Source of the DNA: Candidatus Campbellbacteria bacterium
GTDB lineage: Bacteria > Patescibacteriota > Minisyncoccia > Phycocordibacterales > EsbW-18
Direction: 5' to 3'
DNA: 64,000 bases
NCBI GenBank assembly: GCA_045863475.1
Contig: BTUR01000001.1
Location: forward strand, 59,846 to 123,845
Positions 3,537 through 48,514 of this stretch are shown in pieces (position 1 is the first letter of the stretch; each line of letters opens with the position of its first letter). The notes under the pieces were generated by a model. The model did not search any database, had not been told where the DNA came from, and saw only the letters and a list, made by a program, of their open reading frames with translations. Made by a program: the position numbers and the translations under genes.

Positions 3537-3547
3537 ATAGCGTAGGT

Positions 3548-4225: not shown

Positions 4226-4317
4226 CTTGTCCACATAAGGCTTTTTTCCGAAAAAAAGCCTTATTTTTCGTGGTATTATTTGGGGTGGCAACTGAAGCCG
4301 CCGATTTTTCATTGTTC

Positions 4318-7300: not shown

Positions 7301-10300
7301 CAAACACTGAGAACGCAACGATTGAAGTACAATCCGATGACTTTGAGTCCAGTTTCCAGTCAGCATATCTCCAATACGTTGGGTCAGGTATCGCGGGGAA
7401 CGTGTTTGGCTCTGTCCCGAATGCAGATCTCGCCCGGCTCGTTTTTCAGGAGTCGGCGAACGCAGCGATATACACAACAAATGACGTCCCGATTATTTTT
7501 GGCATAAATAGTGCTGAAGTCGCACGCTTCAGTGGAACGAGCTTTGGTATCGGTACGACATCACCATACGCTACGCTGTCCGTTGCGGGTGATATTGCAC
7601 TGACTGGCGGTTTATACGATAGTACCGCATCGCTCGGTGCAGATGGCTTCGTGTTGCAGACAACAGCCACAGGTGTTGAGTGGGTTTCAACATCATCGCT
7701 TAACATCACCCAAGACCTTTCCGGCTACTTCACACTCGCTGACTGGTACGCAACAACAACGGACGGGCTTGCTGAAGGACTCACAAATCTCTATAACCAA
7801 ACACACACAGGCGAGGTGACTGGGGCAACAGGTCTCACAATTGCTGATGATGTTGTCGATGAAGCGAATCTAAAAATAAACGCGGCCGTTGACGGGTATG
7901 TTATCTCTGCGTCGTCAACCGCATCTGGCGGGCTTGCGTGGGTCGCGACATCAACACTTGGATTGGGTAGTGAGTTGTTTGTTGACGATGGAAGCACACT
8001 TCGCACAGCCGGTGGAGAGGCGGTGCAGGCCGACTACTTTATTGCGACATCAACATCTGCCACTTCAACTTTCCCGATTATTGCGGGAAGTTCTGCCGCA
8101 TCAGGAAATCTCATTTTGCAGTCAACGACCAACTCGACGAAGGGTCGCATCTATCTCGAGGGGACGAGTAACGGAACGGGCCTAGGCATCCGCATCAATA
8201 ATGATTCAGGAACTGCACGGCTCGAACTGTACAACGGGACATCGGGAAACGCAGCACACATTCTTGCCGGCACCATTCTTGGCTCAGCGTTTCGAGGTTC
8301 GGCATCGTGTTCATCCGCTCCGTGCTTCAGTATCAACCCGACGCAGGCATCATTTAACTCGGCGTACACCCTTGATTGGACGAGTGGCGCGTACAATGCA
8401 ACGCGTGACATCGGCCTCGCTCGTGTCAGTGCCGGTATTCTTGGTGTTACAGGTGGACTGACAGGTGGTGGCGCACTTTCCGCAAACTATTTTACTGCCA
8501 CGTCGACGTCAGCAACATCAACGTTTTCAGGTGTTCTGAGTGTTGCGGGTGCGCTCGCAGATGGCTCTGGTAGTCCTGGCGTTTCTGGCTACGTTCTTCA
8601 ATCCACCGGAACGGGAGTAGATTGGGTTTCGACGACAACGCTCGGATTGGACGGAGGTACGAGTTTGTTTGTTGATGACGGCACCACTCTTCGCACGGCC
8701 GATGGGGAAGCAGTGCAGGCGAGCCACATCATCTCCACATCAACCGCGACCTCCACTTTTGGCGGAGACATTTCGATAACCGGCGACATTGTTCCGACTG
8801 CGGACAACACGTACTCGCTTGGTGCTTCAACAACACAGTGGAAAGATGTTTTCATCGGTCCCGGGTCACTGTACATCAACGGACAGAAGGTGATTGAGGA
8901 AGACGGGTCGAACAATATTGTCGTATCGTCTGATATCAACCAGTCACTCGTCCTTCAGACGTCGGGGAGTGGTGATGTGGAACTTAATCCGACGGGGGCC
9001 GGTCTCATTTATCTCAAGGGAAATATTAACGTTACGGGCGGTAAGGTGGTTTCCACATCCGATAATTCATTACTTGAGTTTGAAGACGGCGTCCTTGCAG
9101 GAAATCTTGCAATTGACGGCAACGCAATTACCGCAACGAACACCGATGGAAGCATTTCACTGACTCCCAACGGTGTTGGTAATCTTCTGCTCACAAGTGG
9201 TAACTTTGGCATCGGCACGTCATCTCCATACGCAGACCTTTCCGTTACGGGTGACATAGCACTCACGGGTGGTTTGTATGACAATACGGCAACACGCGGT
9301 GTTTCGGGGTATGTCCTCCAATCCACTGGCACAGGAGTTTCATGGGTCTCGACGAGCTCCTTGAATATATCCGGCGGCTCTTCGCAATGGACAACGACGG
9401 GCTCGGACATTTACTACGCGACGGGACGAGTTGGTGTGGGCACGACGGCACCTGCGTTCACACTCTCGGTTGCCGGTGACACACTACTGGACTCTAACAA
9501 TATTCGTTTTGCATCCAGCTCCGCATCATCACTTACCGTCAGTTACCTTGCCGCTGCGACATCAACGATTGTAAACAACTCCGCGTTTTCGTGGACCCTG
9601 GCGACGTCAACGACTGCAACGCCTATCTTCCGTATCGACACCACATCTGGAGGCATGGCGACAACATCTATTGCCGGCGGACTGCTCATCAACGGCGGTG
9701 CGATTTCATACGACTACGGTGCAAACGAAACATCCATTGAGAAACTCAATCTCGGCAACATGGCGTTTGATGACGACGCCGGCATCGTTTCGTGGATTAA
9801 TCTTCCCATCACGGCGTCTCCGTCCATCGGCACTCCGCAGAGCTATTCCGCGCAAATTGATGACAATATCCTCCTGACTATTTATGGTGAGGCAGACGGT
9901 TCAGGTGGTGCACAGAATTTGCGTGTTGGTGTTGGTACATCAACGCCGTATGCGCGCTTTGCCATTATGGGTGCCGCTGGTTCTACTGATATATTCCAAA
10001 TTGCTTCATCAACCGGAGCGAGTGTTCTTACGGTGACAGCTGCGGGGAAGGTGGGAATTGGCACGACGACCCCGTACACGACGTTGGCTATCATTGGACC
10101 CGATGAAGCACCAACGACAGCGACGACAACCAACGGAGGACTCGGTATTCGTGGTACGGGAACAACAGTCGAGCTGACTATGGGTACGAACGTTGAAGGT
10201 TCAGAAGCATATGCATGGTTACAGGGTAAAAATTATGTGACACCAGGTATATACTATCCGATTATCCTTAACCAAAACGGCGGCAACGTCGGTGTAGGTA

Positions 10301-11100
10301 CCTCAACGCCAACTCAGACGTTCTCAGTGGAGGGGACGGTTGCGTTCAACGGACTCGGAACGGTTGGCGAGATTCAACCAGATGCACTCTGTATAGGCAG
10401 TGATGGAGAGGTAATGGTGAACACAGGAGCGACGGACTGCACCCTATCATCCATTCGTTTCAAACACGACGACCAAGACCTGGCCATCGGCTTAGACGAG
10501 CTCCTACAATTGCGCCCAGTGTCATTCGTGTACAACGAAATGGATGAACGAAGAGTTGGTTTTATTGCCGAGGATGTTGATGCTGTTTCAGGTCTCGACC
10601 CTCTCATCTTCCGTGAAGAAGACGGAACCCCGCGCGGTGTTCGTTATGGTGATATGGTTTCACTTGTCGTCAAATCAATACAGGAACTCAACTACAAGGT
10701 GGACCAGGCACTCGCGGCAAGCGGTGCAGCAATCCAAGGTGGTATCGCGCGATTTACGGAACTCATTGCGGACAAGGTTACGACAAAAGAACTTTGTCTG
10801 GATGATGTGTGTGTGACGCGTGACGAACTGCAAGAACTTCTTGATAATGCAAACATTGATAGCACGCCTCCAAGCGGCGGGGGAGACACAACACCGCCTT
10901 CAGGCACAACAACGCCGCCGACAGACGGGACGGGCACGACAACCGACCCCGCCCCCGAACCTGACCCGACCCCTGATCCGACGCCGGAGCCAGAACCAAC
11001 CCCGGAACCAACGCCGGAACCAACACCTGAACCTGAGCCAGAACCTGAACCCGAGCCCGAGCCAGAACCTACTCCTGAACCCGAACCAATAACCCCGTAA
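4318..11100 (+). CDS. Giant (~2260 aa) secreted fibre-like surface protein: signal peptide, YadA-head/Hep_Hag-like Gly-rich beta-repeats, repeated ~55-aa modules, peptidase-S74 intramolecular chaperone domain, Pro/Glu/Thr repeat tail
   Basis: Signal peptide MTERTPTKALLTSIFLLGSLLGPLFSEA; repeats like AIAIGNSNEAYS / SVAVGSNNALDG / AIAIGVESSGG; S74 motif SSIRFKHDD...LRPVSFVYNE...GFIAEDV...SLVVKSIQEL; C-terminal PEPTPEPEPEP. Confidence 0.8.
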   Translation: MTERTPTKALLTSIFLLGSLLGPLFSEAETTVEDPFATGSTTPTLFDRYATFSEGAQGVIFGAFEKTLADVLVGFRLYDEFSAGAERTVLDGFTAFADGALSATYTYENAANILHTATLASVSDAVDSVGGSVAFGRRSYVTAVDTVFAFAERAVVDTTDATVENAQRMTRVARSLVSLDTFVVRSTTEEEKEKLTPKQEPTVVIKNNTLTASGALAWNTLGGVPDVAIDAAKNSLAASAEATTGLFERTRLALRRWLGIGDDTMVAVPGTNTTTATTTVIERIVERPTTVTQVLRSSGVSYADLINAIAGLRNELQPQIDLAMERPRTVSHSGDDDDDGGDGGSSGDVTEDDLSDNSIEDLSDVAAMTETSGDLLYWNGATWTNIATSSLGISGGSSQWTTSGSDIYYTTGNVGVGTTSPDERLTVGGNIHATGSVDIDSGSEYQIGGTGILTRTSSGAVLLGDYNTSVTRGTNALELQSAPGDTTNFAQGNSSIVIGMWNRASSTNAIAIGNSNEAYSADDILVGYGNMTRETAAAGTQSDSTIFGRANEIWNVNNSLALGDDNSLTGGFAGLERQVVVGASNSVEGAGYTSVFGYDNTLNAASSYLYAVALGSTNILGTTPAYSVAVGSNNALDGARTVAVGSNVYAGGPEAIAIGVESSGGNMFALGYRAISIGVNTQANADGAIAIGNGIVNAVASSTQIGPSDTAKLTILGATGSEGFVGIGTTTPATNLVVDGDVSITGGLYDSGTSLGSNGMVLQSTGTGIDWVSTSSLNITQDLSAYLTLADWYATTTDGLAEGLTNLYNQTHTGEVTGATGLTIADDVVDEANLKINAAVDGYVISASSTASGGLAWVATSSLGFGSGSGVVGSGTTGQVAYYAADGTAVTGTSSVFIAPSGNVGIGSTTPLSVLTVSGPAATISIDNSSIGGRIYQLRNGVSPVGRFEIFDVSANETRLAIDSDGKTAIGTSTPIEDARLFIYGGANVDIRTAANTENATIEVQSDDFESSFQSAYLQYVGSGIAGNVFGSVPNADLARLVFQESANAAIYTTNDVPIIFGINSAEVARFSGTSFGIGTTSPYATLSVAGDIALTGGLYDSTASLGADGFVLQTTATGVEWVSTSSLNITQDLSGYFTLADWYATTTDGLAEGLTNLYNQTHTGEVTGATGLTIADDVVDEANLKINAAVDGYVISASSTASGGLAWVATSTLGLGSELFVDDGSTLRTAGGEAVQADYFIATSTSATSTFPIIAGSSAASGNLILQSTTNSTKGRIYLEGTSNGTGLGIRINNDSGTARLELYNGTSGNAAHILAGTILGSAFRGSASCSSAPCFSINPTQASFNSAYTLDWTSGAYNATRDIGLARVSAGILGVTGGLTGGGALSANYFTATSTSATSTFSGVLSVAGALADGSGSPGVSGYVLQSTGTGVDWVSTTTLGLDGGTSLFVDDGTTLRTADGEAVQASHIISTSTATSTFGGDISITGDIVPTADNTYSLGASTTQWKDVFIGPGSLYINGQKVIEEDGSNNIVVSSDINQSLVLQTSGSGDVELNPTGAGLIYLKGNINVTGGKVVSTSDNSLLEFEDGVLAGNLAIDGNAITATNTDGSISLTPNGVGNLLLTSGNFGIGTSSPYADLSVTGDIALTGGLYDNTATRGVSGYVLQSTGTGVSWVSTSSLNISGGSSQWTTTGSDIYYATGRVGVGTTAPAFTLSVAGDTLLDSNNIRFASSSASSLTVSYLAAATSTIVNNSAFSWTLATSTTATPIFRIDTTSGGMATTSIAGGLLINGGAISYDYGANETSIEKLNLGNMAFDDDAGIVSWINLPITASPSIGTPQSYSAQIDDNILLTIYGEADGSGGAQNLRVGVGTSTPYARFAIMGAAGSTDIFQIASSTGASVLTVTAAGKVGIGTTTPYTTLAIIGPDEAPTTATTTNGGLGIRGTGTTVELTMGTNVEGSEAYAWLQGKNYVTPGIYYPIILNQNGGNVGVGTSTPTQTFSVEGTVAFNGLGTVGEIQPDALCIGSDGEVMVNTGATDCTLSSIRFKHDDQDLAIGLDELLQLRPVSFVYNEMDERRVGFIAEDVDAVSGLDPLIFREEDGTPRGVRYGDMVSLVVKSIQELNYKVDQALAASGAAIQGGIARFTELIADKVTTKELCLDDVCVTRDELQELLDNANIDSTPPSGGGDTTPPSGTTTPPTDGTGTTTDPAPEPDPTPDPTPEPEPTPEPTPEPTPEPEPEPEPEPEPEPTPEPEPITP
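6718..6899 (+). repeat. Intragenic direct repeat copy A (~180 bp identical to 7768-7949)
   Basis: Identical DNA encoding AEGLTNLYNQTHTGEVTGATGLTIADDVVDEANLKINAAVDGYVISASSTASGGLAWVAT in both copies; antisense ORFs 6738..6944 and 7791..8006 share identical translations. Confidence 0.85.
7768..7949 (+). repeat. Intragenic direct repeat copy B
   Basis: See copy A; flanking ~80 bp diverged at synonymous and nonsynonymous sites. Confidence 0.85.
10860..11097 (+). repeat. Low-complexity (ccn-gaa/gag-cca) tandem repeat encoding TPPSG...PEPTPEPEPEPEP tail
   Basis: Visible short-period repeat cctgaacc/cgagcc; antisense translation is GSGVGSG. Confidence 0.8.
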
Positions 11101-11106
11101 TCTCCC

Positions 11107-14100
11107 ATGCGTTTTTCTCGTAGAACAATATATGTAGTAGTCGGGGTGATTGCGTTGATTGTTGCTTTGTACGCGCTGGTCACAACAGTGCGCGGTGATA
11201 CGTTTTTCGGAATTTCTCTGCGCTCGGGTTCTTTGAGCGACGGACTTATTGCGCATTGGACGTTTGACGGTAAGTACATGACACCGAATGTGCGGGATGC
11301 AGCCGGAAGTTACCACGGTGTATTAACAAACCAAACGGCAACGACAACACGTATCGGACGCATCGGGCAGGCGCTCGAATTTGACGGTGACAATGACTAC
11401 GTCAACCTCGGCACCATCCCGCTCAGCGACCCACTGCAGCTCTCTGACGATGTACTCACTATTTCTGCGTGGTTCTATCAAAAATCAGGGGGCGACAGCT
11501 TTCAACGCATTATCGACAAATCAAGCAACACGGGTGCGACAAACGGCTGGGCGTTTTTTGCCGACCCCAGTGATCCGAACTCCATATGGTTTCAATCTGC
11601 CGGTTCTGAACTTCGTTCCGCGGATAACGTCTACAATCAGAACGAATGGACACACGCGGCAGTCGTGTTTCGCGCCAATGATGTCAAAAAGATATACGTA
11701 AATGGCCAAGAGGTTTCGTTACAAACATCAAACAACCTAAACATCCCCAATTCAGCTGTCGGTGCCCGCATTGGTACGTGGTATAACGCCACGACGCGTG
11801 AATGGAACGGCTATCTCGATGATATCCGCGTGTACAACAGACTGCTTTCGGCAAACGAAATCAAGCGTTTGTACGGACTCGGCAACACGACGCGGATTTC
11901 AAAAACAATTTCTGTCGGCAGTATCGGTGCAACGGCCGACTCCGGGCTCGTCGGCCACTGGACGTTTGACGGTAAACACATGACACCGAATGTGCGGGAT
12001 ACCAGCGGGCAAGCGAATCATGGCGCACTCGCGAACTTTTCTGCTACGACCACTGCGATTGGCCGCATTGGTCAGGCACTTGAATTTGATGGATTGGACG
12101 ATGTTGTTGCTATTACACACAACAGCGTGCTCAATCCGTCGGGCAGTTATACCGTCGCGGCATGGGTATACCCACAAACCCTTCCTACAGTGAGCAACGG
12201 ACAATGGATTGGGATAGTTGCAAAAGGGAATACAGGGGAAACATCCGCGAGCAACCACCCATATGTTATCGCGTACCACCCTGTCGGTGGGGGAAGCCCG
12301 GTCGGCTTCGGTGTTGGACTCGAAAACAGCTCTGGATCAAACTGCAATGCATTTTCAAGTGATGCGGAACCAGCGGGAGCGTGGTATCACGTTGTCAGCC
12401 GTTTCAATGACAGTTCCAATGTGCTTGAAGTTTTCGTCAACGGTGTTTCTCAGGGAAGTGATGCATGTAGTTTAAGCCCCAACACTGGGAACTCGCGCCC
12501 TGTTTGGATTGGAGATGACGAACACACATCAGGACTTCGATTTGACGGTGTCATAGATGACGTCCGTATCTATAATCGCGCTCTTGTTGATGACGAAATA
12601 CAACGGCTCTACGATCAGGGTTCTGGCACCAGAATTACCTACACACCACCTGCGGAAGAAAACACTGCGCCGACGGTAAGTGATTCGGGGAGGAGTCCAT
12701 TTCACGGTGCGGATCTTGGCGGCTCTTCGTCCATAAAGCTCTTCATGAATACATGGACGGATCCGGAGGGGGATTCTATTGAATATTATTTTGAATTTTT
12801 CCAGAACGCGGCGTTTTGCAGTGGTGGAACAGGGATACTAAACAGTGGGTGGATTAGTGACCCAACAGCGACCGGAGGATTCACCGTAGCACTATCCGCT
12901 GGCAGCACATATTCATGGCATGTAAAGGCAAGGGACGAACACGGACTTGAGAGTGATTACAACGCCTGTTATGTGTTTACGAACAGTATCGGCGGCAGCT
13001 GTCCGTATGTGTTCGGTTGGGATGGAGAACAGTATCAATTCGAAGCAGATATCTACGGCTCCGGCGGCTTGGGGTACAAGAAATGGGGAGCATCCGACTT
13101 CGTGCAACCCTCTCCAAACAGGACGTATGTCCTGAAGTACGTAGAACCCCGAAATGGAGCGTTTGAGTGGCGCATCGTGGGTGACCTCAGTGAAATCAAC
13201 TACTTTGACCTCTTCCGTATGTATTCGTATTTTGTGCCGGAGGATCGTGACATCATCGTTGAGTCGCCGACGCTGGGCTCGGGTATGAGCGCGACGAGTA
13301 CGCTCCATACCATATCAACGGCACCGCTGTCGGCTCTGTCGGCGACGCGCCTTGATACGAACGAAGACGTTACGAGCGCTCTGTCAGCGCGCGACGAAGA
13401 CAAAGTCATCGTCAATAAGAACAAAAAAGAGACATATGAACCCGTACAAATAGAAGTCGATTTCGGCGACATCTCACGCTATTCGACGAAGAAGCTCGTT
13501 GTCGGCGGCTCAACAACGTACCCAACCACCGAAGAGGGTATCGCGCGCAAACAACTCTACGGTCGGGAGTGGGGTTTGTACGTGCAGGACGCGGCAGGGC
13601 AGTGGCAGAAAGTGCCGTACGAAAAATACAGCCCGACAAAACCGCTCTCATTCGAAAGTGTACTCGCCGTTGATATCTCAGACATCTTTATTTCGGAGAA
13701 CACAAAACTGCGCCTCGAGTACTTATATAAGGTATACGTGGATTACGTTGCATTGGACGTTACCGAGGATTTGCCGCTCGCGGTCGCCGAGGAACATCCA
13801 ATTACGTATGCTGACTTGCATGACTTTGGCGGATGGCACGATTTCGATAAGGATGGCAATGTGCCTGACTACTACAACGTTTCGCCACTTGAGGAGGATT
13901 ACGAGGATTTTCCGGGATACTACACCCGTTTCGGCGATGTTACTCCGCTTCTTGAAAAGCGTGACGACAAATTTGTTATTCTTGCGAAGAGAGACGAGAT
14001 AACCGTGAAGAACGCGCTACCCAAAATTGAACCCCCGACAGGATACAAGCGCGTGTACATGCTCGATGTGACCGGCTACTACAAGGCGCTCACCAAGACG

Positions 14101-14310
14101 ATGACGCCTATGACCGTTGAACCCATGCCGTTCTCGGGTATGAGTGCGTTCCCGTACCCTGATACGGAGCACTACCCGGACACGCCGGAGTATCAGGAGT
14201 ATCGGGCCAAATACAATACGCGGTACCTCTCTCCTGACACTCCAAGGAGCGGCTCCTCTATTACTGATGCGGCAAAGCGGCTCCTGGATGGCGTCCTTGG
14301 CGGGGAATAG
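11107..14310 (+). CDS. Membrane-anchored protein with two LamG-like (concanavalin A-like lectin) domains and a long Tyr/Pro-rich C-terminal region
   Basis: N-terminal TM helix; duplicated motif L(I/V)(A/G)HWTFDGK(Y/H)MTPNVRD..G..HG.L.N.(T/S)ATTT.IGRIGQALEFDG.(N/D)D(Y/V)V plus I(R/D)VYNR(A/L)L...EI.RLY; 7-nt gap after giant gene suggests one operon. Confidence 0.75.
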   Translation: MRFSRRTIYVVVGVIALIVALYALVTTVRGDTFFGISLRSGSLSDGLIAHWTFDGKYMTPNVRDAAGSYHGVLTNQTATTTRIGRIGQALEFDGDNDYVNLGTIPLSDPLQLSDDVLTISAWFYQKSGGDSFQRIIDKSSNTGATNGWAFFADPSDPNSIWFQSAGSELRSADNVYNQNEWTHAAVVFRANDVKKIYVNGQEVSLQTSNNLNIPNSAVGARIGTWYNATTREWNGYLDDIRVYNRLLSANEIKRLYGLGNTTRISKTISVGSIGATADSGLVGHWTFDGKHMTPNVRDTSGQANHGALANFSATTTAIGRIGQALEFDGLDDVVAITHNSVLNPSGSYTVAAWVYPQTLPTVSNGQWIGIVAKGNTGETSASNHPYVIAYHPVGGGSPVGFGVGLENSSGSNCNAFSSDAEPAGAWYHVVSRFNDSSNVLEVFVNGVSQGSDACSLSPNTGNSRPVWIGDDEHTSGLRFDGVIDDVRIYNRALVDDEIQRLYDQGSGTRITYTPPAEENTAPTVSDSGRSPFHGADLGGSSSIKLFMNTWTDPEGDSIEYYFEFFQNAAFCSGGTGILNSGWISDPTATGGFTVALSAGSTYSWHVKARDEHGLESDYNACYVFTNSIGGSCPYVFGWDGEQYQFEADIYGSGGLGYKKWGASDFVQPSPNRTYVLKYVEPRNGAFEWRIVGDLSEINYFDLFRMYSYFVPEDRDIIVESPTLGSGMSATSTLHTISTAPLSALSATRLDTNEDVTSALSARDEDKVIVNKNKKETYEPVQIEVDFGDISRYSTKKLVVGGSTTYPTTEEGIARKQLYGREWGLYVQDAAGQWQKVPYEKYSPTKPLSFESVLAVDISDIFISENTKLRLEYLYKVYVDYVALDVTEDLPLAVAEEHPITYADLHDFGGWHDFDKDGNVPDYYNVSPLEEDYEDFPGYYTRFGDVTPLLEKRDDKFVILAKRDEITVKNALPKIEPPTGYKRVYMLDVTGYYKALTKTMTPMTVEPMPFSGMSAFPYPDTEHYPDTPEYQEYRAKYNTRYLSPDTPRSGSSITDAAKRLLDGVLGGE

Positions 14311-14385: not shown

Positions 14386-14799
14386 ATGGCGACAATTAAC
14401 CAGCTGACAAAGAAAGGTAGACGAAAGGTGGCGCGAAAAGCGAAGACCACCGGCCTTCGTCGTGGTTTCAACACGCTCACGAACCGTCCGACGCGATACG
14501 TCTCGCCGTTTAAGCGCGGTGTGTGCACACAGGTCAAAACAACGACGCCGAAAAAGCCGAACTCAGCTATCCGCAAGATTGCCCGTGTACGACTCACCAA
14601 CGGTCAAGAGATTACCGCATACATTCCGGGCATGGGACACAAACTCCAGGAACACTCGGTGGTCTTGGTGCGCGGCGGACGCGTGAAAGACATCGGCGTA
14701 CGCTACACCATTGTCCGCGGCACGCTTGACGCGGAAGGTGTTGAGAAGCGCATGAAGGGCCGCTCGCACTACGGAGCAAAACGACCGAAAGCTAAATAA
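14386..14799 (+). CDS. rpsL: 30S ribosomal protein S12
   Basis: Conserved S12 sequence (PKKPNSA(L/I)RK, GHNLQEHS-like, VRGG.VKD.PGV). Confidence 0.95.
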
Positions 14800-14807: not shown

Positions 14808-15311
14808 ATGCGTCGCCGACTTAAAGAAAGAGAAAAACACCCCGTACGCCCTGACCGCGTTTACAACTCGGTTACGGTTTCTAAACTCATCTCGCACGTT
14901 ACAAAAGACGGAAAGAAAAGCACTGCACAGCGCCTCGTCTACGGTGCACTCGATCTGCTCAAAAGCGAGCACGATGTGAAGGAGCCTGCAGCACTCCTTG
15001 AACAAGCAATTCAAAACGCAGCCCCGACGATGGAGGTTCGCTCACGACGCGTGGGAGGTGCCAACTACCAGGTGCCGTTCCCGGTCCGACCCGAGCGACA
15101 ACTCGCACTTGCACTCCGCTGGATTTTGGAAGGCGCCCGCGCCAAGAAGGGAAGTGATTTTTCAAAACGACTTTCCGACGAGCTTTTTGCAGCATCAAAG
15201 GGAGAGGGGGGCGCAATGACCAAGCGCGAAAACGTCCACCGCATGGCGGAAGCCAACAAGGCGTTCGCTCACTTCGCATTTTCACGACAGAAGAAACCGA
15301 GCGTGCGATAA
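14808..15311 (+). CDS. rpsG: 30S ribosomal protein S7
   Basis: S7 family sequence; canonical position after rpsL. Confidence 0.95.
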   Translation: MRRRLKEREKHPVRPDRVYNSVTVSKLISHVTKDGKKSTAQRLVYGALDLLKSEHDVKEPAALLEQAIQNAAPTMEVRSRRVGGANYQVPFPVRPERQLALALRWILEGARAKKGSDFSKRLSDELFAASKGEGGAMTKRENVHRMAEANKAFAHFAFSRQKKPSVR

Positions 15312-15346: not shown

Positions 15347-17497
15347 ATGAACCGAGACTACCCACTGGAGAAGGTACGCAACTTCGGAATCGTTGCGCAC
15401 ATTGACGCCGGCAAGACGACTGTCTCCGAGCGTGTGTTGTTCTATACCGGCATGTCGCACAAAATCGGCGAGGTGCACGAAGGTGAAGCAACCATGGACT
15501 GGATGGAACAGGAGCGCGAGCGCGGTATCACCATTACCGCCGCGGCAACGACGTGTTTCTGGACGCCGTCTTACGAGGCGGACAACACGGAGCGCAAACA
15601 CCGTTTCAATCTCATCGACACTCCGGGCCACATCGACTTCACTATTGAAGTGAAGCGCTCACTGCGCGTGCTTGACGGTGCAGTCGTCGTCTTCGACGGC
15701 GTGTCTGGCGTCGAACCGCAGTCAGAGACGAACTGGCGCTATGCCGATGAAGGTAAGGTGCCGCGCATGTGTTTCATCAACAAACTCGACCGCACGGGTG
15801 CGTCATTTGAACGCTCCTACAAATCCATTCTTGACCGCCTCACGACGAACGCGGTGCGCATGCAGATTCCGATTGGTGAAGAGGACAAGCACGAAGGCGT
15901 CGTTGATCTCCTCACGATGAAGGCGTACTACTTCGAGGGAAACATGGGCAGTGTTATTCGTATTGATGAAGTACCGGAACACCTCACAGCCGATGCACAG
16001 AAATATCGTCACGAACTTATTGAGAAGATTGTTGAGCAGGACGAGGATGCAATGAACCTGTATTTGGAAGGGAAGGAGCCCTCTCTTGCGGAGCTTAAGA
16101 AGATTCTGCGCCGCGCGGTTATTGCAAACGCAATTACGCCGGTGTTTACCGGTTCAGCACTCAAGAACAAGGGTGTGCAGCTTGTGCTCGATGCGGTTGT
16201 TGATTATCTCCCCTCACCGTTGGATATTCCTCCGGCAAAGGGTATTGATCCGCACACTGGAGAAGAACTCGTGCGTCACGCCTCAGACGAGGAGCCGTTT
16301 TCGGCACTTGCGTTTAAGGTGCAGACCGACCCGTTCGTCGGACAACTCACGTTTTTCCGTGTCTACTCGGGAACGGTTGAAGCTGGCTCATACATGTACA
16401 ACGCGACAAAAGAGAGCAAAGAGCGTGTTGGCCGTATCGTGCGTCTTCACGCCAACGATCGTGAAGAGGTGAAGAAAGTGTTTGCGGGAGAAATTGCCGC
16501 CGCCGTGGGTTTGAAGGACACAACAACGTCGGATACGCTCTGTGACGAGAACAATCCGATTATCCTTGAGCGCATCAAGGTTCCGGAGCCGGTTATCTCA
16601 TTGCGTATTGAGCCGAAGACAAAAGCAGACCAGGAAAAACTCGGACTCGCGCTCAAACGTCTCTCGGACGAAGACCCGACATTCCGCGTTACGACTGACC
16701 CTGAAACCATGGAAACCATTATTGCAGGCATGGGTGAACTGCACCTTGAAGTGCTGGTGGAGCGCATGCGCCGCGAATTCTCCGTGGACGCAAACGTCGG
16801 CAAGCCGCAAGTTGCGTACCGCGAGACGATTACGGGCACGGCGGAAGTTGAAAACAAATACATCAAACAAACGGGAGGTCGCGGTCAGTACGGTCACGTG
16901 AAGCTTCGCGTCAAACCGATGGACACGACGATTAACGAAGAAGATTTGCCGAAGAACACGAAACGCGATGACGGTCTTGAGTTCATTAACTCCATCAAGG
17001 GAGGTGTCATTCCGCAGGAATACATTCCGGCGGTCCAGAAGGGTCTTCGTGAGGCGATGGATCGTGGTGTTTTGGCCGGTTACCACCTCGTGAACATCTC
17101 TGTAGATCTCTACGACGGTTCGTACCACGAAGTTGACTCATCTGAAATCGCGTTCAAAATTTCTGCTTCACAAGCACTCCAGGAAGCGGTACAGAAAGCA
17201 CGACCGGTGTTGCTCGAACCGATTATGAAAGTGGAGGTTGTGGTTCCGGAGCAGTTCATGGGTGACATTACCGGTAACCTCTCATCCAAGCGCGGACAAA
17301 TTCAGGGAATGGAAGACCGCGGACAACTCAAAGCAATCAAGGCATTTGTTCCGCTCTCCGAGATGTTCGGCTACACAACCGCACTTCGCTCCATGACGGA
17401 AGGACGCGGTAACTCAACGATGGAATTTGACCACTACGAAATCGTTCCAGACAGCGTTGCAAAGGGCATCATCGAAGCACGTGGTGCAGCTCGTTAA
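15347..17497 (+). CDS. fusA: Elongation factor G
   Basis: [13 protein letters not shown]1 motif, [11 protein letters not shown], full EF-G domain order; canonical str-operon position. Confidence 0.95.
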
Positions 17498-17522
17498 CTC
17501 TCCACCCGCATTTATTTTTGAG

Positions 17523-17562
17523 AACACAAAAACCGCCAAGCAAGGCGGTTTTTGTTTTTTTT
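17523..17562 (+). terminator. Rho-independent terminator after fusA
   Basis: aaaaccgccaagcaaggcggtttttgttttttttt. Confidence 0.75.
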
Positions 17563-17577
17563 TAAAAAAGGGGGGGT

Positions 17578-17611
17578 CTTGACGTTTTTTAGGTATACGC
17601 TATTGTGAACG
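17578..17611 (+). promoter_or_regulatory. Putative sigma70-like promoter (ttgacg-16-tattgt)
   Basis: -35/-10-like hexamers ~100 nt upstream of the 17718 ORF. Confidence 0.3.
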
Positions 17612-17717
17612 CTAAATTTGCTGTTCTTTGCAGACCCCATACTTCACCTCCTGGACCGCGTGGGTTCAGGGTTCGCTGTGATAGCAGGCGACTACCAGAA
17701 AGAAGAGGTGCTCAGAG

Positions 17718-18095
17718 ATGAAGAGATTCGTCCTCTGCGCGACGCTCGCGACGTTCGTCGCGGCGCTCGCCGTCTCCATCCCGGCCCAAGCAACGGACCC
17801 GAGTCCGCCGCTTGCCGAGTTGTCGATGGAGGCGCCGTACGCGCCCACCGATATCAATACCTTCTGCGAAGTCCAGATCGGCCTGACCCCTGCCATCCTC
17901 ACCGAGCACGTCCTCGTCCTGCCCGACCTCACCGGCGACCGTGTCGACCGCGACGTCGGCTGGGTCGACATCTCCGCGAACCCCTTCTTCGTGCGAACGG
18001 TCGACACAACGACCACTTCGAGCTCCATCGGCGCCGACCGACAGCGTGACACCGGCGAGAAACGAGGGGGCGCCCTGCGCGCCCATCCGACCTGA
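17718..18095 (+). CDS. Small secreted protein of unknown function on a high-GC (~66%) island
   Basis: Sec signal peptide MKRFVLCATLATFVAALAVSIPAQA; RBS aagaggtg; GC3-rich codon usage unlike flanking fusA; own promoter-like and terminator. Confidence 0.55.
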   Translation: MKRFVLCATLATFVAALAVSIPAQATDPSPPLAELSMEAPYAPTDINTFCEVQIGLTPAILTEHVLVLPDLTGDRVDRDVGWVDISANPFFVRTVDTTTTSSSIGADRQRDTGEKRGGALRAHPT

Positions 18096-18118
18096 CCAAC
18101 ACCACCAAGGCGAAGTAC

Positions 18119-18160
18119 GGGAAACCCCGAGTCCGAAAGGATTCGGGGTTTCTTCTTTTT
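18119..18160 (+). terminator. Rho-independent terminator
   Basis: aaaccccgagtccgaaaggattcggggtttcttcttttt. Confidence 0.65.
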
Positions 18161-18250
18161 GTATACGGGTTTGACTTCCATTTTTGAAGAGGGTAGTGTT
18201 GTCCTAGATTTTGCGGATTCTGGCTTGAGAGAGCCGAGGAGGGGGTAAAG

Positions 18251-18616
18251 ATGCCCAGGTACTGTCTCACGTTTGGGAACAATTACTTCGACAATGGACT
18301 CGAGAACGGGTGCGTCGAGGGCAACATGTGCCGAGTCATCTTCGCGGATGATGAGCAGGTGGCCAGACGAATTGGCCTGATTATGGAGGGTGAGGAGGTT
18401 AACGCCCACGAGACTCTCGGTCGGCTCCTCACGGTGAATGAGACAAAGGGCGAGATCAGTCTCAACTCATGGGATCCCGAGAAGATGATGGAGGAGGTGC
18501 TCCAAATTCTGATTACCCAAGGCGAAGAGGGTCTCCAGATTGCTCGAGGTGGCCAGGGTGAGCCAATCGGGTTGACACGCCTCGTGTCCACCGTGCCCGC
18601 CGTAAAGCTCGAGTAA
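18251..18616 (+). CDS. Hypothetical cytoplasmic protein (121 aa)
   Basis: Strong RBS gaggagggggtaaag immediately upstream of ATG; no signal peptide; followed by terminator hairpin. Confidence 0.5.
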   Translation: MPRYCLTFGNNYFDNGLENGCVEGNMCRVIFADDEQVARRIGLIMEGEEVNAHETLGRLLTVNETKGEISLNSWDPEKMMEEVLQILITQGEEGLQIARGGQGEPIGLTRLVSTVPAVKLE

Positions 18617-18624
18617 TACTGAGG

Positions 18625-18680
18625 AGCAGGACAACAACCGCCCAACGAGATCGTTCAATGAATCCGTTGGGCGATTTCGT
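18625..18680 (+). terminator. Rho-independent terminator
   Basis: ccgcccaacg...cgttgggcg hairpin followed by atttcgttttttt. Confidence 0.55.
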
Positions 18681-18699
18681 TTTTTTGAATCAAGGTAGC

Positions 18700-18845
18700 C
18701 GCACGATATTCCTGAGGGATTAGTGCTATATCGTGCGGCGTAGTACGAAGTGAGCTTGTTATTTGCAAAAACTCGCGGAGGCCGAAGAGGCCGAGTGTGA
18801 ACGCCCCGCCAACAGGCGGGGACGTGTGTTTTGCAAATAATCAAG
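18700..18845 (+). other. Inverted-repeat-bounded structured element: hairpin ccgcacgatat/atatcgtgcgg, then 12-bp perfect IR ttatttgcaaaa...ttttgcaaataa enclosing GC-rich nested stems
   Basis: Perfect 11-bp and 12-bp inverted repeats read directly; inner cgccccgcc aaca ggcggggacg stem; palindromic core TTTGCAAA in both arms. Confidence 0.4.
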
Positions 18846-18971
18846 CGAGCGGAGAGTTTATGTACTTTTTATGCAATGTGTGCTATCGTCGTTGCGCAGA
18901 GTCGTAAGGCTCTTTATTAGCTCTTTTCGGCAAGTATCGCAATACGCCGAAGAGGGAGAAGTTAGCATAGT

Positions 18972-19271
18972 ATGGAAGGAGCAAAATTGTACGTCGGCAA
19001 CCTTAGCTACGGAACGACTGAAGAGTCGATCCGCGAGCACTTTGGACAAGCTGGCTCAGTCGCATCAGCGACAATTATTCGCGACAAGATGACCGGCCGT
19101 TCAAAAGGTTTCGGGTTCGTCGAAATGTCATCTGCAGAAGACGCGCAGAAGGCAATTGAGATGTTCCACGGAAAAGACTTCGACGGACGCGCGCTGACGG
19201 TAAACGTAGCACGCCCGATGACGGAGCGACCTCCGCGCCGTGACAACTACGACAACGGTGGACGTTGGTAA
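18972..19271 (+). CDS. RNA-recognition-motif (RRM) RNA-binding protein
   Basis: RNP-2 LYVGNL and RNP-1 KGFGFVEM motifs; Arg/Gly/Asp-rich C-terminal tail. Confidence 0.8.
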   Translation: MEGAKLYVGNLSYGTTEESIREHFGQAGSVASATIIRDKMTGRSKGFGFVEMSSAEDAQKAIEMFHGKDFDGRALTVNVARPMTERPPRRDNYDNGGRW

Positions 19272-19282
19272 GCCACTCTCTT

Positions 19283-19362
19283 TGATTTTTTAAGAGCACG
19301 CGTCCGTTTCTACTGAAACGGCGCTCACGCTCGGGCTCTTCGCCCTCCGCAAGGCTCTTAAA
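19283..19362 (+). other. Second IR-bounded element (ttttttaagagc ... gctcttaaaaaa) enclosing hairpin ccgtttc tact gaaacgg
   Basis: 12-bp perfect inverted repeat flanking a GC-rich 57-nt core, immediately downstream of the RRM gene. Confidence 0.4.
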
Positions 19363-19375
19363 AAATAAAGTATCG

Positions 19376-19412
19376 TTTGATTGATAAAAACCTTGGGCTT
19401 TGCCCAAGGTTT
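19376..19412. terminator. Bidirectional rho-independent terminator
   Basis: gataaaaaccttgggctttgcccaaggtttttatc: 12-bp perfect stem with A/T runs both sides. Confidence 0.7.
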
Positions 19413-19482
19413 TTATCGTTTCTTTACAATTTTTAAGTGCAGGCATACCATTTATCATAGAAGTACACCAACGAGAGGAGGG

Positions 19483-19806
19483 ATGTGTATGTCCGTTTTG
19501 AGAGACCACGTGGTTGAGACGCTGATGGCTCACCGCTCTCAGATTCGACGCCTGCTTACCATCATGACTCCCAACCTTCCACGGAGGGCGAGCATGGTCA
19601 GGCGCATCAACACGCTGATCAATCAGAAGGAGCTTTCCCCAGAGTTCGGGGTGGGGCTCAAGATGGTTCTCCACGCCAGAATTCCTTCTGGGGCGAGGTC
19701 ACTCGTCGAGCTGGGGAGAACTGCAAGGCAGTTTCGCCATCTTCTGGAAGCAACAGATCAGTCGATGCAGATGACCAAGAAGGTGCACGTGCTCAAGGCC
19801 GTGTGA
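19483..19806 (+). CDS. Hypothetical protein (107 aa; alternative start ATG at 19489)
   Basis: RBS gagaggagg just upstream; intact ORF. Confidence 0.45.
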   Translation: MCMSVLRDHVVETLMAHRSQIRRLLTIMTPNLPRRASMVRRINTLINQKELSPEFGVGLKMVLHARIPSGARSLVELGRTARQFRHLLEATDQSMQMTKKVHVLKAV

Positions 19807-19949
19807 ACGGCTGTTTACCGAGGCTCGGGTTACCCCCGGGCTTCTTCTTTTCCCCATGATTTCCCCAGAAATATGAAGTGAGCCCAAAAGGCCTTATTTG
19901 AGGCCTCTAAAATACCTATTTTTACGGCCTAAAATAAGGCTAAATAAAC

Positions 19950-19977
19950 TTGACACGATACTTCGGCTGGGTATAAT
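19950..19977 (+). promoter_or_regulatory. Consensus sigma70 promoter (TTGACA-16-TATAAT), probable 23S rRNA promoter with A/T-rich UP region
   Basis: cttgacacgatacttcggctgggtataatggc read directly; ~320 nt upstream of 23S 5' end. Confidence 0.6.
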
Positions 19978-20893
19978 GGCCGTACTGAATATGATTACTT
20001 CAATTAACTGCATACCGCGGAGCATATAGATGCGAGCCCTTGTGGTGCGCCTCGAAACCCTCCGCTCAAAAAGCGGTTTTTTTGTTCTCATAGACAGTCG
20101 ATGACCTTTGACAACTGCATAAGCAATAAAGAATCAAATGCTTATTTCGCGCAAGCGAAGTAAGCGCAGGTATCTCGTGCGGCTCATCTAGCGCCGCGCG
20201 GGAATCAAACAACGTGTACCGCGCAGCGGTGTGTTGGTGCACGGAATCGCAGACGCATGTAGGTGCGTATGCGATAAAGACGGTTTTTAGATTTCCTAAC
20301 GGGAGATTTAAAGGGCGTATGGTGGATGCCTTGGTTCTATGTGGCGATGAAGGACGTGGTGTAACTGCGATAAGCTTCGGGGAGGTGTTAAGCAACCTTT
20401 GATCCGGAGATTTCCGAATGGGGAAACCCTGTCGAGTAACCCTCGATAACCGACGCAGCGATGCGCGGAGCATACCCTGGGAAGTGAAACATCTCAGTAC
20501 CAGGAGGAAAAGAAAACAAATGTCATTCCCTTAGTAGCGGCGAGCGAAACGGGAGCAGCCCAAACCACACTGTACTTGTATAGTGTGGCGTTGTAGGGCG
20601 GTAACGCCTGTTTTTAACAAGGAGAAAGTTACAAAATACATCTTTAGTCGAATGCGCTGGAAAGCGCAATCCCAGAAGGTAACAGTCCTGTAGACGAAAA
20701 AGATGTATCTTTCTAGTTACCGTTCCTGAGTACCTCAAGACACGAATAGCTTGGGGGAATCCGCCGGAACTAACCGGCAAGGCTACATACACATAGAGAC
20801 CGATAGTGAACTAGTACCGCGAGGGAAAGGTGAAAAGAACCCCGGAGAGGGGAGTGAAATAGATCTGAAACCATATGCCTACAAGGAGTCAGA

Positions 20894-21228
20894 GCCGAGC
20901 TCTACTTTTTGTTTTTAATTTTCTTTGAACATGTTGAAGGTACGCTCGTGCATATGCACGTTGTGTATCTGATACAAAACACGGTGAGCCACGAACTGTA
21001 CGTTGGTGTAACACGCGACCTTAAAAAGAGGTTGGTGACACATAACAGCGGTGCGGTTACGGCAACGCGACGCAGCGGCGAGTGGGTCTTGATTTACGCG
21101 GAGGCGTATCGAGATGAGCACGACGCGCGCGAGCGAGAGCATCACCTCAAACAGCGCGGCGCGGCAAAACGCGGCGTGTATGAAAGAGTTCGAAGAAGTT
21201 TCCTTGAAAACAAAAAGTAGAGCTTCGG
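20894..21228 (+). other. Intervening sequence (IVS)-like insertion in the 23S helix-25 region, closed by a ~17-bp stem (gccgagctctactttttg ... caaaaagtagagcttcgg)
   Basis: rRNA similarity is interrupted after CAAGGAGTCAGAGC and resumes at GCGTGCCTATTGAAGAATGAGCCAACGAGTT; the insertion termini are an almost perfect inverted repeat. Confidence 0.65.
20954..21220 (+). CDS. GIY-YIG nuclease-superfamily protein (UPF0213-like, ~88 aa) encoded inside the 23S insertion
   Basis: VYLIQN...ELYVGVTRDLKKRLVTHNSG...LIYAEAYRDEHDAREREHHLK GIY-YIG motifs; ORF exactly fills the loop, stop codon TAG lies in the 3' stem arm. Confidence 0.7.
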   Translation: MHVVYLIQNTVSHELYVGVTRDLKKRLVTHNSGAVTATRRSGEWVLIYAEAYRDEHDAREREHHLKQRGAAKRGVYERVRRSFLENKK

Positions 21229-22640
21229 TCATGGCGTGCCTATTGAAGAATGAGCCAACGAGTTTAAGTATGCGGCGAAGCTAAATCCTTTGTCGGATGA
21301 AGCTGCAGGGAAACCGAGTGTTAATAGCGCGTACTTTGAAAGCAAGGAGGTCGGACGTGTAGGTGAGCAATCACACACGCGTTCGGCATTCTCGCTTTCA
21401 AAAGGTCGTATACTTAAGACCCGAAGCTAGGTGAGCTACCCATGAGCAGGGTGAACTTTGTCGAAAGATGAAGGGAGGCCCGAACCGGTTGATGGTGCAA
21501 AATCTTCGGATGACTTGTGGGTTGGAGTGAAAAGCTTATCGAACCTAGTAATAGCTGGTTCTCTCCGAAACAGCTTTTGGGCTGGCGTACAGCGTACCTC
21601 TTGGGGGTAGAGCACTGGATGGTCCGGATAGGGAGAAATCTCGCTGGACCAATCAAACTCCGAATACCAAGAGTAAGTACTGTGCAGTTAGACCGTGGGG
21701 GCTAAGCTCCACTGGTCAAAAGGGAAACAGCCCTTGATCTCAAGTTAAGGTCCCTAAATCGATGCTAAGTGCAAGTCGAGGAGGTGAAATTTCTCAGACA
21801 CTGAGGAAGTTGGCTTAGAAGCAGCCATCTTTTAAAGAAAGCGTAACAGCTCACTCACTCAGAGATTTCGCGCCACAGACTATCGGGGCTAAGTATCGTA
21901 CCGAAACTGAGGATGACACGTGCGTTCGCGCATGTGTCGTGGTAGGAGAGCATTTCCATCTGCGATGAAGCCGAAGGCGTGAGCCACGGTGGAGCGATGG
22001 GAAGAGAGAATGTTGGTACAAGTAACCGCAATGCGGGTGAAATACCCGCACGCCGAAAAACCGAGGTTTCCTTCGCGATGGTAATCAGCGAAGGGTTAGT
22101 CGGGCCTAAGCGAATGGCGAAAGCCGGACGTGATGGACACACGGTTAATATTCCGTGACTCGGCTGTAATTCGATGGAGAGACGGAGTGAAGTATATATC
22201 GCACATTATTGGATTTGTGTCGGGCATGCGAGGAGGTCTGTTTGGCAAATCCGGCAGACACTACTCCAGAGGCATGTTCGGGAACCCAATCTACGGAACG
22301 GGGAACGATATAAAGCGCGCTTCCAAGAAAATCTTCTAAGGTTAATTACAGACGACCCGTACCGCAAACCGACTCCGGTGGTTAGCTCGAGTAGAGTAAG
22401 GCGAACGAGTGAGAGGTCCTCAAGGAACTCGGCAAAAAAGCGACCGTAAGTTAGCAATAAGGTCTGCCTGCGCAGCAGTGCGTGGGCCGCAGCTAAAGTC
22501 TTCCTGGCGACTGTTTATCAAAAACACAGCTCCCTGCGAACTCGTAAGAGGATGTATAGGGGGTGACACCTGACCAATGCCAGAAGGTCAAGTATGGAGG
22601 GTCTTCTCCGCAAGGAGAAGGCTGAGCTATATAAGCCCTG

Positions 22641-22702
<62 letters not shown>

Positions 22703-22765
22703 ACGCCGATGAGAACAAATGCTATGGTACGTAAATAGTCTGTGCGCATGGCGAAGTGCCACGTG

Positions 22766-23425
22766 CTATGCAGTTTCTTCAGGTGCGGCTGTTTCTCCTT
22801 CTCCCTCCGCAGTTTCATCCTTACCTTTCTTTTCCACTTCGATTGCATCCATGTCAATCGGTGCAACCGGCTCTTCGATTTCTTCTTGCGGCTGAGAAAT
22901 TGCGGCAACCACTTCGTCTCCTTCGTTGAGAATCGTAACACCTGCAGGCACGGGTATGTCTTTAATGACAACTTGACTGTCAAACGTTTCAAGCGATGAC
23001 ACATCAACAGTGAGCTCGTGTGGCAAGTCTTTTGGCATCGCCTCAACTTCCACCTCGTGCATCACCTTCACCAGTGTACCACCCAAGTTCTTAACTGCGG
23101 GCGCCTCACCTGTGAACAACAGCGGGACATCGATGCGAAGCTTCTTTCCTTTCTCGATAACGTAAAAATCAACGTGCTCAAATACATCCGTGACCGGATG
23201 TTTTGTAACTTCATGAACGAGCGCGTCTTTCGGCTCACCAACACCTTCCAGTGTGATGATGGATGATTCACCGGCCGAGCGGAACACTTTTTCAAATGTC
23301 TTGCGGTCAACTGCAATCGGCGTGGATTCCTCTTTCGGACCGTAAAAAACCGCCGGAATCTTGCCGCCTTTGCGCAAGCTCTCCGCGTTTCCTGCCTCTC
23401 GTTTTTCTACTGTAAGCGTCAACAT
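22766..23425 (-). CDS. rplY: 50S ribosomal protein L25 / general stress protein Ctc
   Basis: L25/Ctc family (LTVEKREAG..SLRKGGKIPAVFYG, two beta-barrel domains, acidic tail); start set to MLTLTVEKR. Confidence 0.85.
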   Translation of the reverse strand: MLTLTVEKREAGNAESLRKGGKIPAVFYGPKEESTPIAVDRKTFEKVFRSAGESSIITLEGVGEPKDALVHEVTKHPVTDVFEHVDFYVIEKGKKLRIDVPLLFTGEAPAVKNLGGTLVKVMHEVEVEAMPKDLPHELTVDVSSLETFDSQVVIKDIPVPAGVTILNEGDEVVAAISQPQEEIEEPVAPIDMDAIEVEKKGKDETAEGEGETAAPEETA

Positions 23426-28329: not shown

Positions 28330-28417
28330 ACGCTTTTGAAAGTATACCCCGTGAGATAGTTTTTTACATCTCACGGGGTATAACAAATCTCCCTACAAAT
28401 TCTTGACAAACCATGCA

Positions 28418-28960: not shown

Positions 28961-28972
28961 GTCTAAAAATTG

Positions 28973-48493: not shown

Positions 48494-48514
48494 AACAATC
48501 TCGCCCGAAATATT

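Follow-up and report, generated by a model that had tools for sequence, protein, structure and literature searches.

Bacteria of the Candidate Phyla Radiation (CPR), Campbellbacteria among them, live as episymbionts and have not been cultivated, and most of their hosts and interaction factors are uncharacterised. Horizontally acquired open reading frames (ORFs) without detectable relatives, or ORFans, are known from genomic-plasticity hotspots as "unameliorated" foreign genes of the Lawrence-Ochman type, and the canonical str operon, next to which the present example lies, has the order rpsL-rpsG-fusA-tufA. That example, ORF125, is a 125-codon ORF downstream of fusA in a 64 kb contig segment (hereafter the window) of a Candidatus Campbellbacteria (CPR/Patescibacteria) metagenome-assembled genome. 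Described systems that invite comparison are the small secreted proteins that occur commonly in CPR genomes, 24 of which are listed for a Gracilibacterium genome (PMC6851277), and, with respect to the surrounding DNA, mobile insertion cassettes (MICs), in which two inverted repeats bracket a segment lacking a transposase gene, usually with a target-site duplication; MIC231 of Bacillus cereus and the "mic" element of qnrD are examples (PMC3913671).

ORF125 resembles unameliorated ORFans in its GC content and third-position GC content (GC3), which are far from the host norm, in its patchy distribution among close relatives, in its lineage-specific cargo slot, and in showing neither detectable homologues nor, as yet, AT-ward amelioration. 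It departs from them in that the GC-rich part is very small (one 378-nt gene), in that no tRNA, integrase, or phage genes lie nearby, and in that the donor is unidentifiable even against ~15 billion proteins. Like the small Sec-secreted proteins of CPR bacteria (PMC6851277), ORF125 is short, lineage-specific, equipped with a classical signal peptide, and carried by an episymbiotic bacterium with a reduced genome. However, its composition is foreign; moreover, whereas the hypervariable gene of that study encodes a large repeat protein, variation in ORF125 takes the form of whole-gene presence or absence together with point substitutions.

Our verdict is that ORF125 is genuine: an accessory gene of an ordinary kind, gained recently, and a foreign secreted ORFan in a hotspot. 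The fuller explanation that we consider probable, though far from certain, is that of a recently acquired foreign gene under a host-type promoter, encoding a small, Sec-exported, signal peptidase I-processed extracellular protein that diversifies quickly, on an inverted-repeat-bounded cassette in that hotspot.

Composition, reading frame, and signal anatomy of ORF125

The GC content of ORF125 is 0.669, with values of 0.635, 0.524, and 0.849 at the first, second, and third codon positions (GC1, GC2, and GC3). Across the 45 long ORFs of the window, GC3 has a mean of 0.551 and a standard deviation of 0.078, placing ORF125 at z ~3.8; the highest GC3 for a real window gene is 0.696. The GC maximum over all 378-nt windows of the 64 kb, 0.680, falls at 17729. 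An earlier note on this stretch, made from its letters alone, had described a GC3-rich 125-aa ORF of ~66% GC with a composition foreign to its neighbours, and both the ORF and its foreignness are borne out by the GC3 calculation.

The high-GC stretch leaves multiple frames open (five overlapping ORFs of more than 75 aa), which raises the question of whether ORF125 is the wrong feature, the relevant one being an antisense or alternative-frame gene (e.g., 17666-18409, minus strand) or a structured RNA. Third positions are common to ORF125 and the 247-aa minus-strand ORF, which hence has high GC3 as well, and the leader upstream of ORF125 is 99% conserved in a second strain. However, the coding signature GC1 > GC2 << GC3 is found in the plus frame from 17718 alone; the minus-strand ORF crosses the plus-strand terminator and promoter and reads as an Arg/Ser-rich shadow ORF without a family match; and the promoter, Shine-Dalgarno (SD) sequence, and terminator all lie on the plus strand. 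Pfam returned nothing for five alternative or antisense ORFs, nor for the mature ORF125 peptide. The leader has no credible Rfam family, with the E-value scan giving terminator-like noise alone, and its fold is no more stable than those of shuffled sequences (z = -0.9). We hold such a misassignment to be highly improbable.

The promoter-like hexamers, ribosome-binding site, and terminator that the earlier note had ascribed to the ORF are all recognizable (Table 1). Between promoter and start codon, period-3 GC in the ORF125 frame reaches upstream to ~17628, which is also where near-identity with the second strain begins. The leader holds an in-frame mini-ORF tail (...LQTPYFTSWTAWVQGSL) followed by TGA TAG at 17679-17684; this 17-codon tail faintly resembles, and may conceivably be, the 3'-terminal part of a donor gene that arrived together with ORF125.

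The predicted N-terminus consists of MKRFVLCATLATFVAALAVSIPAQA followed, after the cleavage point, by TD; its n-region is basic, its h-region is 18 residues long, and positions -3/-1 fit A-x-A. Parsed as MKR, FVLCATLATFVAALAVSI, and PAQA before TD, it has the features expected for Sec export and signal peptidase I cleavage, as the earlier note had proposed in calling the signal peptide canonical, and the allele of the second strain keeps the pattern (MKRFVSCATFATLVAALAVSVQAQA, then TD). The pattern sought was a basic n-region, an uncharged hydrophobic h-region of at least 12 residues, small residues at -3/-1 (A-x-A), and cleavage at residues 18-35. Of the 379 six-frame ORFs with 60 aa or more, only 4 pass a simple Sec heuristic; all four resemble real genes, one of the other three being a LamG surface protein. 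The lipobox [LVI][ASTVI][GAS]C has no match in ORF125: the signal peptide has a single Cys, at residue 7 (FVLC), which lies ahead of the h-region and lacks a G/A/S at -1, unlike the lipoprotein (signal peptidase II) pattern. The twin-arginine (Tat) motif S/T-R-R-x-F-L-K is likewise not found in ORF125, whose n-region reads M-K-R-F with no RR. The mature protein is rich in Thr, Asp, and Pro, with seven Arg against one Lys and a single Cys. A candidate sortase signal, LPDLTG at residues 68-73, was rejected, as it is neither LPxTG nor C-terminal.

The fusA/RRM_1 slot in sister genomes and its inverted repeats

Sister contexts were obtained from homologues of elongation factor G (EF-G, the fusA product) and their contigs. 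A scan of a genome collection with EF-G gave relatives of at most 76% identity; closer sisters came from the protein database together with contig context. In six sister Campbellbacteria loci (EF-G 88-92%), fusA is followed by the conserved RRM_1 gene found beyond ORF125 in the window, either directly or past an unrelated insert. The two genes are direct neighbours in three of the six, L084 and L085 (EF-G 92%) and L087 (90%), which share an arrangement in which the gap of 148-172 nt contains a terminator and no gene. In the remaining loci the cargo is different each time: a NUDIX gene and an 84-aa ORF in L086 (90%); 1.25 kb without called genes in L088 (89%); three small ORFs in L089 (89%); a 924-aa secreted protein with a GC content of 42% in L090-L092 (89%), where RRM_1 is in view in L090 alone; a 1442-aa Peptidase_S74 protein in L095 (88%); and, in L093 (87%), a beta-helix protein of >2000 aa directly after fusA, with RRM_1 not in view. 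This lineage-by-lineage change of cargo indicates that the fusA/RRM_1 junction is a hypervariable accessory slot in the Campbellbacteria clade.

Relative to these sisters, the insertion in the window measures ~1.36 kb (about 17498-18858) and holds ORF125, a second ORFan, ORF121, and a hairpin-rich tail of 170 nt. Positions 17498-18853 have no counterpart in L084, L085, or L087, and homology with the sisters resumes at 18854-18859, in the RRM promoter. The earlier note's high-GC island therefore survives as a foreign insertion with signals of its own, but not in its extent, which had been put at 0.6 kb with one ORF. A comparison with sister genomes, which that note had suggested, finds the ORF125 island absent from L084, L085, L086, L087, L088, L089, L090, and L095 and present only in L083, the second strain considered below. 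No integrase or transposase domain was found in the flanking genes examined, nor any PHROGs match.

The cargo of L090-L092 (about 7100-9900) is a beta-propeller/Big_5 protein with a GC content of 0.42 and a GC3 of 0.30, whose signal peptide also starts with MKRF (MKRFLITTLSILLLAVVFIPSSVFA). Set against ORF125, this low-GC cargo implies that the slot takes foreign genes of both compositional extremes.

A 14-nt inverted repeat, AACTCTCCRCYCGC, lies exactly at the two independently defined boundaries of the insertion. Its arms agree at 12 of 14 positions within the window, and the left arm of L083 is complementary to the right arm of the window at 14 of 14. Allowing at most one mismatch, the 14-mer occurs in 1.04 Mb of fetched DNA at the boundaries only, apart from one single-mismatch match in the unrelated L062; there is no second copy in the window. 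No target-site duplication is apparent: the flanks read ...CGTT and TATGTAC, and the only repeated bases are those that prolong the inverted repeat.

The block resembles a MIC in several respects: it is a 1.36 kb segment with 14-nt inverted repeats at both ends, its passenger genes (ORF125 and ORF121 only) have their own promoters and no accompanying transposase, and its spread between strains apparently postdates the divergence of the flanking genes. However, it shows no visible target-site duplication and exists in a single known copy; no cognate insertion sequence or transposase with matching ends was found in the window, which covers 64 kb of the 253 kb contig; and the repeat is short (14 nt) and the promoter-proximal part more diverged than the rest. 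We do not file the block as a MIC, since a target duplication, further copies, and a transposase to match are all either lacking or beyond reach. It is quite unlikely, though worth stating, that 17498-18858 represents a new transposase-less inverted-repeat cassette moving between Campbellbacteria species into the fusA/RRM slot and carrying genes with promoters of their own, one of them a secreted-protein gene captured from a high-GC host organism; were this so, ORF125 would be a mobile host-interaction factor under diversifying selection, as well as a pointer to the host of these CPR bacteria.

Within the insertion, a 12-nt direct repeat brackets the ORF125 module, and copy 1 in L083 equals copy 2 in the window at 12 of 12 positions; this arrangement could be due to chance. 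The GC3 of ORF121 (0.705) exceeds that of every real window gene other than ORF125. Among 5.8 billion proteins ORF121 finds only itself, and it has no family match. The tail of the insertion contains two perfect inverted repeats (18698-18709/18728-18739 and 18759-18770/18829-18840), the latter enclosing a GC-rich hairpin; the tail could be a small RNA or the remnant of an element.

Divergence from a second strain and the standing of ORF125

Positions 17400-20400 are 100% identical in the Logan assemblies of two runs, DRR491769 and DRR491768. L083 derives from a different study (SRR13959604) and represents a divergent strain with 97% identical EF-G; it has the same fusA terminator, promoter, and leader, and the first 79 codons of an ORF125 homologue, after which its contig ends. 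An assembly chimera, or contaminating high-GC reads joined to a CPR contig, might be suspected from the abrupt GC change at the gene borders. However, the junctions recur identically in two per-run assemblies and the left one is found again in L083, a divergent strain from independent data, which contradicts a chimera and leaves it a practically negligible prospect. The earlier note had raised that prospect itself, along with widespread homologues in low-GC relatives; neither is seen, the sole homologue, that of L083, being equally GC-rich (GC3 0.87). This allele is a partial homologue, 85% identical, with an in-frame 3-nt indel and a GC content of 0.68.

Between the two strains, fusA is 89.2% identical (dS 0.58, dN 0.021), and its third-position differences stay within 10-46% across all 50-codon blocks as far as the stop codon. 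Beyond it, identity is 95% in the terminator region, 77% in the region of the promoter and transcription start site (TSS), and 94% in the first 79 codons of ORF125. L083 has both promoter hexamers unchanged but a different spacer and different TSS-proximal bases. The 14 substitutions in ORF125 fall 6/6/2 by codon position (dS 0.033, dN 0.073). Third positions differ at 2/78 sites in ORF125 as against 200/717 in fusA (p = 2.7e-8), and silent sites in ORF125 are ~17-fold less diverged than those of fusA. No third-position change in ORF125 is AT-ward, from which it follows that amelioration has not begun.

These silent-site data bear on the idea that ORF125 is a native, vertically inherited gene whose atypical composition stems from amino-acid content or selection. 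Its occurrence at the same site in two strains with a fusA dS of 0.58 would fit such a history. However, the gene is lacking in every other sister locus examined, its extreme GC3 is not a matter of amino-acid content alone, and the 17-fold deficit is incompatible with co-divergence; vertical inheritance is therefore contradicted, and we find it scarcely credible. The simplest reading of the alignments is that the GC-rich cores of the two strains share an ancestor far younger than the strains themselves, which would imply a recent transfer or recombination between lineages.

On the same reading, the exported ORF125 has changed mainly at the amino-acid level since that transfer. Twelve differences are nonsynonymous and two synonymous; strong purifying selection, taken as omega (dN/dS) = 0.1, is rejected (p = 7e-7), and a comparison of nonsynonymous with silent sites (synonymous plus leader) gives an excess of amino-acid changes (p = 0.037). 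The changes cluster in codons 6-54, at 14/147 versus 1/165 nt (p = 2e-4). Five substitutions lie in the signal peptide and leave its n/h/c architecture and AQA intact. The target of a diversity-generating retroelement was considered and rejected: the variable stretch has no internal repeat, and the differences (10 transitions, 4 transversions) affect all four bases, not adenine positions alone as such a target would require. No reverse transcriptase appears among the Pfam domains of the subset of window genes examined.

A mechanism consistent with these observations would begin with recent capture, from a high-GC donor, of the GC-rich core (about 17628-18100), bringing with it what look like the final 17 codons and paired stop codons of an upstream donor gene, the SD sequence, and the 125-codon gene. 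ORF125 would then be transcribed from a sigma-70-type promoter in host-like AT-rich DNA, with transcription ending at its own terminator, and its product would be exported by Sec and cut by signal peptidase I after Ala25 (AQA/TD). An acidic Thr/Asp/Pro-rich protein of ~100 aa would thereby be released at the cell surface or into the medium, most likely for a part in cell-cell interaction, whether host attachment and recognition or antagonism; such a role would explain rapid diversification of the N-terminal half between strains. The data establish the insertion and its limits, the foreign composition, the reading frame, the layout of the expression signals, the recency relative to host genes, and the surplus of amino-acid changes, whereas transcription, export, cleavage, and any role outside the cell are inferred.

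Several results weigh against this account. By calculation, a 125-codon open frame in 67% GC DNA has a ~6% chance per frame, and several further frames are open at ORF125. The last 20 codons lack the period-3 GC pattern (0.85/0.65/0.75), and the C-terminal tail may be the product of truncation or a frameshift. The dN/dS of ~2.2, based on 14 substitutions, cannot be told apart from neutral evolution (p = 0.25). Over the 60 nt next to the promoter, divergence reaches 23%, as against 99% identity in the adjoining leader, and one simple, recent transfer of the entire cassette would not produce this contrast. Homologues of ORF125 were sought and not found by a word-indexed search of 5.8 billion proteins, by exhaustive phmmer against 1.84 billion representative proteins, in Pfam, NCBIfam, PHROGs, or PADLOC, among PDB sequences, by tblastn and blastn against plasmids and phages, or in viral and Joint Genome Institute (JGI) metagenome contigs queried both by protein and by a 24-nt leader pattern. 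The BLAST/HMM check of the mature peptide put forward in the earlier note, run as Pfam on that peptide together with these wider searches, accordingly yielded no relative beyond the L083 allele. As no search returned a homologue, neither donor nor function can be named. The single-sequence AlphaFold model of ORF125 has a pLDDT of 39; that of ORF121 has 35, both too low for a fold search. Two matches were discarded along the way: P0122, the only other phmmer hit, is an artefact (a eukaryote-like tandem-repeat translation), and a 48-nt Curtobacterium match (E = 9e-3) is a GC-rich chance match.

Most of these points would also be expected if the insertion were dead on arrival: a functionless donor fragment comprising the end of one gene and the 5' part of a secreted-protein gene, with the frame open because it is GC-rich and young. 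The dN/dS that is not below 1, the 6/6/2 distribution, the multiple open frames, the weakened periodicity at the 3' end (compatible with truncation), the empty homology searches, and the no-confidence structure model all agree with it. However, a dead fragment would not be expected to carry a full expression kit, with hexamers kept while their spacer diverges, a suitable SD distance, an ATG, and a terminator; the indel between the alleles is in frame; the signal-peptide substitutions preserve its architecture; and neither the surplus of amino-acid changes nor their clustering is predicted by uniform neutral decay. We regard functionless DNA as unlikely, though it deserves serious weight, and retain a functional, exported ORF125 as the preferred explanation.

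The pairing of ORF125 with ORF121 suggests a further alternative, in which a secreted toxin (or bacteriocin) and a cytoplasmic immunity protein travel together on the cassette. A small secreted protein followed by a small acidic cytoplasmic ORFan in one insertion has the expected layout, both genes are strain-specific ORFans, and the secreted partner evolves fast. However, each gene has a separate promoter-like site and terminator, so they do not form an operon; neither matches a toxin, immunity, or defence family; the acidic mature protein with its single Cys has no evident bacteriocin-like features; and the L083 contig ends before the position of ORF121. A toxin-immunity pair therefore seems improbable to us.

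A recently acquired, secreted, fast-evolving protein, as ORF125 is proposed to be, makes a reasonable candidate interaction factor specific to its strain. If the donor genome were sampled, the unameliorated high GC content of ORF125 could, in principle, lead to that donor, which is possibly the host. The fusA/RRM_1 junction also offers a clean natural experiment, being a short slot between conserved genes that receives lineage-specific and often secreted or surface cargo. Because ORF125 has neither a homologue nor a fold, the practical value is limited to flagging a candidate and a hotspot.

Genome setting and neighbouring features

The locus agrees with the canonical str operon in that rpsL-rpsG-fusA is complete and in order, and differs from it in that tuf is not immediately 3' of fusA in the window or in close sisters. 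A tblastn search with elongation factor Tu (EF-Tu) found no tuf anywhere in the window, while the same search found it in 45 other loci; more distant CPR loci (EF-G identity at most 76%) alone have tuf after fusA. The earlier note had thus correctly placed a terminator after fusA (hairpin and T-run at 17526-17555) and reported tuf missing there. It erred in seating the island in the place of tuf: RRM_1 follows fusA in six sister loci, so tuf was not displaced by the insertion, and its loss from this position is older than the island. In L094 (7152-12151; EF-G 88%), the genes after fusA are rpsS-rplV-rpsC-rplP..., with no intervening tuf, rpsJ, or rplCDWB, which is another rearrangement of the str/S10 region in the Campbellbacteria clade.

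Table 1. Features of the window and their coordinates (position 1 is the first nucleotide of the window)
Feature	Position	Strand	Remarks
Peptidase_M50 gene	3530-4225		
Two giant surface-protein genes	4270-14310		Between Peptidase_M50 and rpsL
rpsL	14386-14799		Pfam and NCBIfam
rpsG	14808-15311		Pfam and NCBIfam
fusA (EF-G)	15347-17497	+	Last gene of rpsL-rpsG-fusA; TIGR00484, 1089 bits; Pfam domains; left anchor of the variable slot
Left inverted-repeat arm	17496-17509	+	AACTCTCCACCCGC; starts inside the fusA stop codon; AACTCTCCGCTCGC in L083
fusA terminator hairpin	17504-17577	+	Core 17526-17555 plus T-run (terminator scan; inverted repeat); 95% identical in L083 apart from homopolymer length
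Homopolymer block T9A6G7	17555-17576		Directly 3' of the fusA terminator
Sigma-70-like promoter of ORF125	17579-17606	+	-35 TTGACG, 16-nt spacer, -10 TATTGT; in AT-rich host-like DNA
Direct repeat TTTTTGTATACG	Copy 1 17585-17599; copy 2 18153-18167	+	Brackets the 568-nt ORF125 module
GC-rich leader	17628-17717	+	Start of the foreign core; 89/90 identical to L083
ORF125 SD sequence	17705-17710	+	GAGGTG, 7 nt before the ATG
ORF125	17718-18095	+	125 aa; GC3 0.849; annotated hypothetical protein AMXMBFR44_0840 [Candidatus Campbellbacteria bacterium]
ORF125 signal peptide	17718-17792	+	Codons 1-25; predicted cleavage after AQA
Mature ORF125	17793-18092	+	100 aa, acidic, pI 4.5
ORF125 intrinsic terminator	18119-18154	+	16-bp stem plus T-run; inverted repeat
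ORF121 promoter-like hexamers	TTGACT 18171-18176; TAGTGT 18194-18199	+	Identified by eye
ORF121 SD sequence	18236-18242	+	GAGGAGG
ORF121	18251-18616	+	Second ORFan; acidic, no signal peptide; GC1/GC2/GC3 0.615/0.361/0.705
ORF121 terminator	18644-18681	+	Terminator scan
Hairpin-rich non-coding insertion tail	18682-18844	+	Two perfect 12-bp inverted repeats; no counterpart in sister loci
Right inverted-repeat arm	18845-18858	-	GCGAGCGGAGAGTT on the plus strand
RRM_1 promoter and leader	About 18855-18971		Conserved
RRM_1 RNA-binding protein gene	18972-19271	+	PF00076, 1.3e-24; right anchor of the variable slot
23S rRNA	20299-22833		Rfam match

The two giant surface proteins upstream of rpsL comprise one of 2276 aa with a Peptidase_S74 domain and one of 1067 aa with Laminin_G_3. 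In several sisters the M50 gene lies directly 5' of rpsL, indicating that the upstream side of rpsL-rpsG-fusA is a variable slot as well. At the 3' end of fusA, the homopolymer block reads T5A2G5 in L083, and a similar A8G7 follows fusA in L090 (about 7200-7230), whose insert differs completely.

The leader of the RRM_1 gene (18914-18971; TTATTAGC...GTATCGCAATACGCCG...GAAGTTAGCATAGT) retains ~89% identity in the sisters, the surrounding intergenic DNA being unalignable. It has no Rfam match; the RRM protein may use it as an RNA element for autoregulation. Further downstream, the 23S rRNA match covers 2535 nt against the 2925 positions of the bacterial large-subunit model (1436 bits), and conservation with sister loci (82-86%) begins ~450 nt 5' of the Rfam-defined start (19848-20299). 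No 16S, 5S, or tRNA genes were found in the window.

Compositional outliers opposite to ORF125 also occur: low-GC islands lie at 28232-29137, including an ORF (28418-28960) with a GC content of 0.37 and no Pfam match, and at about 44264-49207, where a run of genes has a GC content of 0.33-0.46. These islands may be acquired DNA too.

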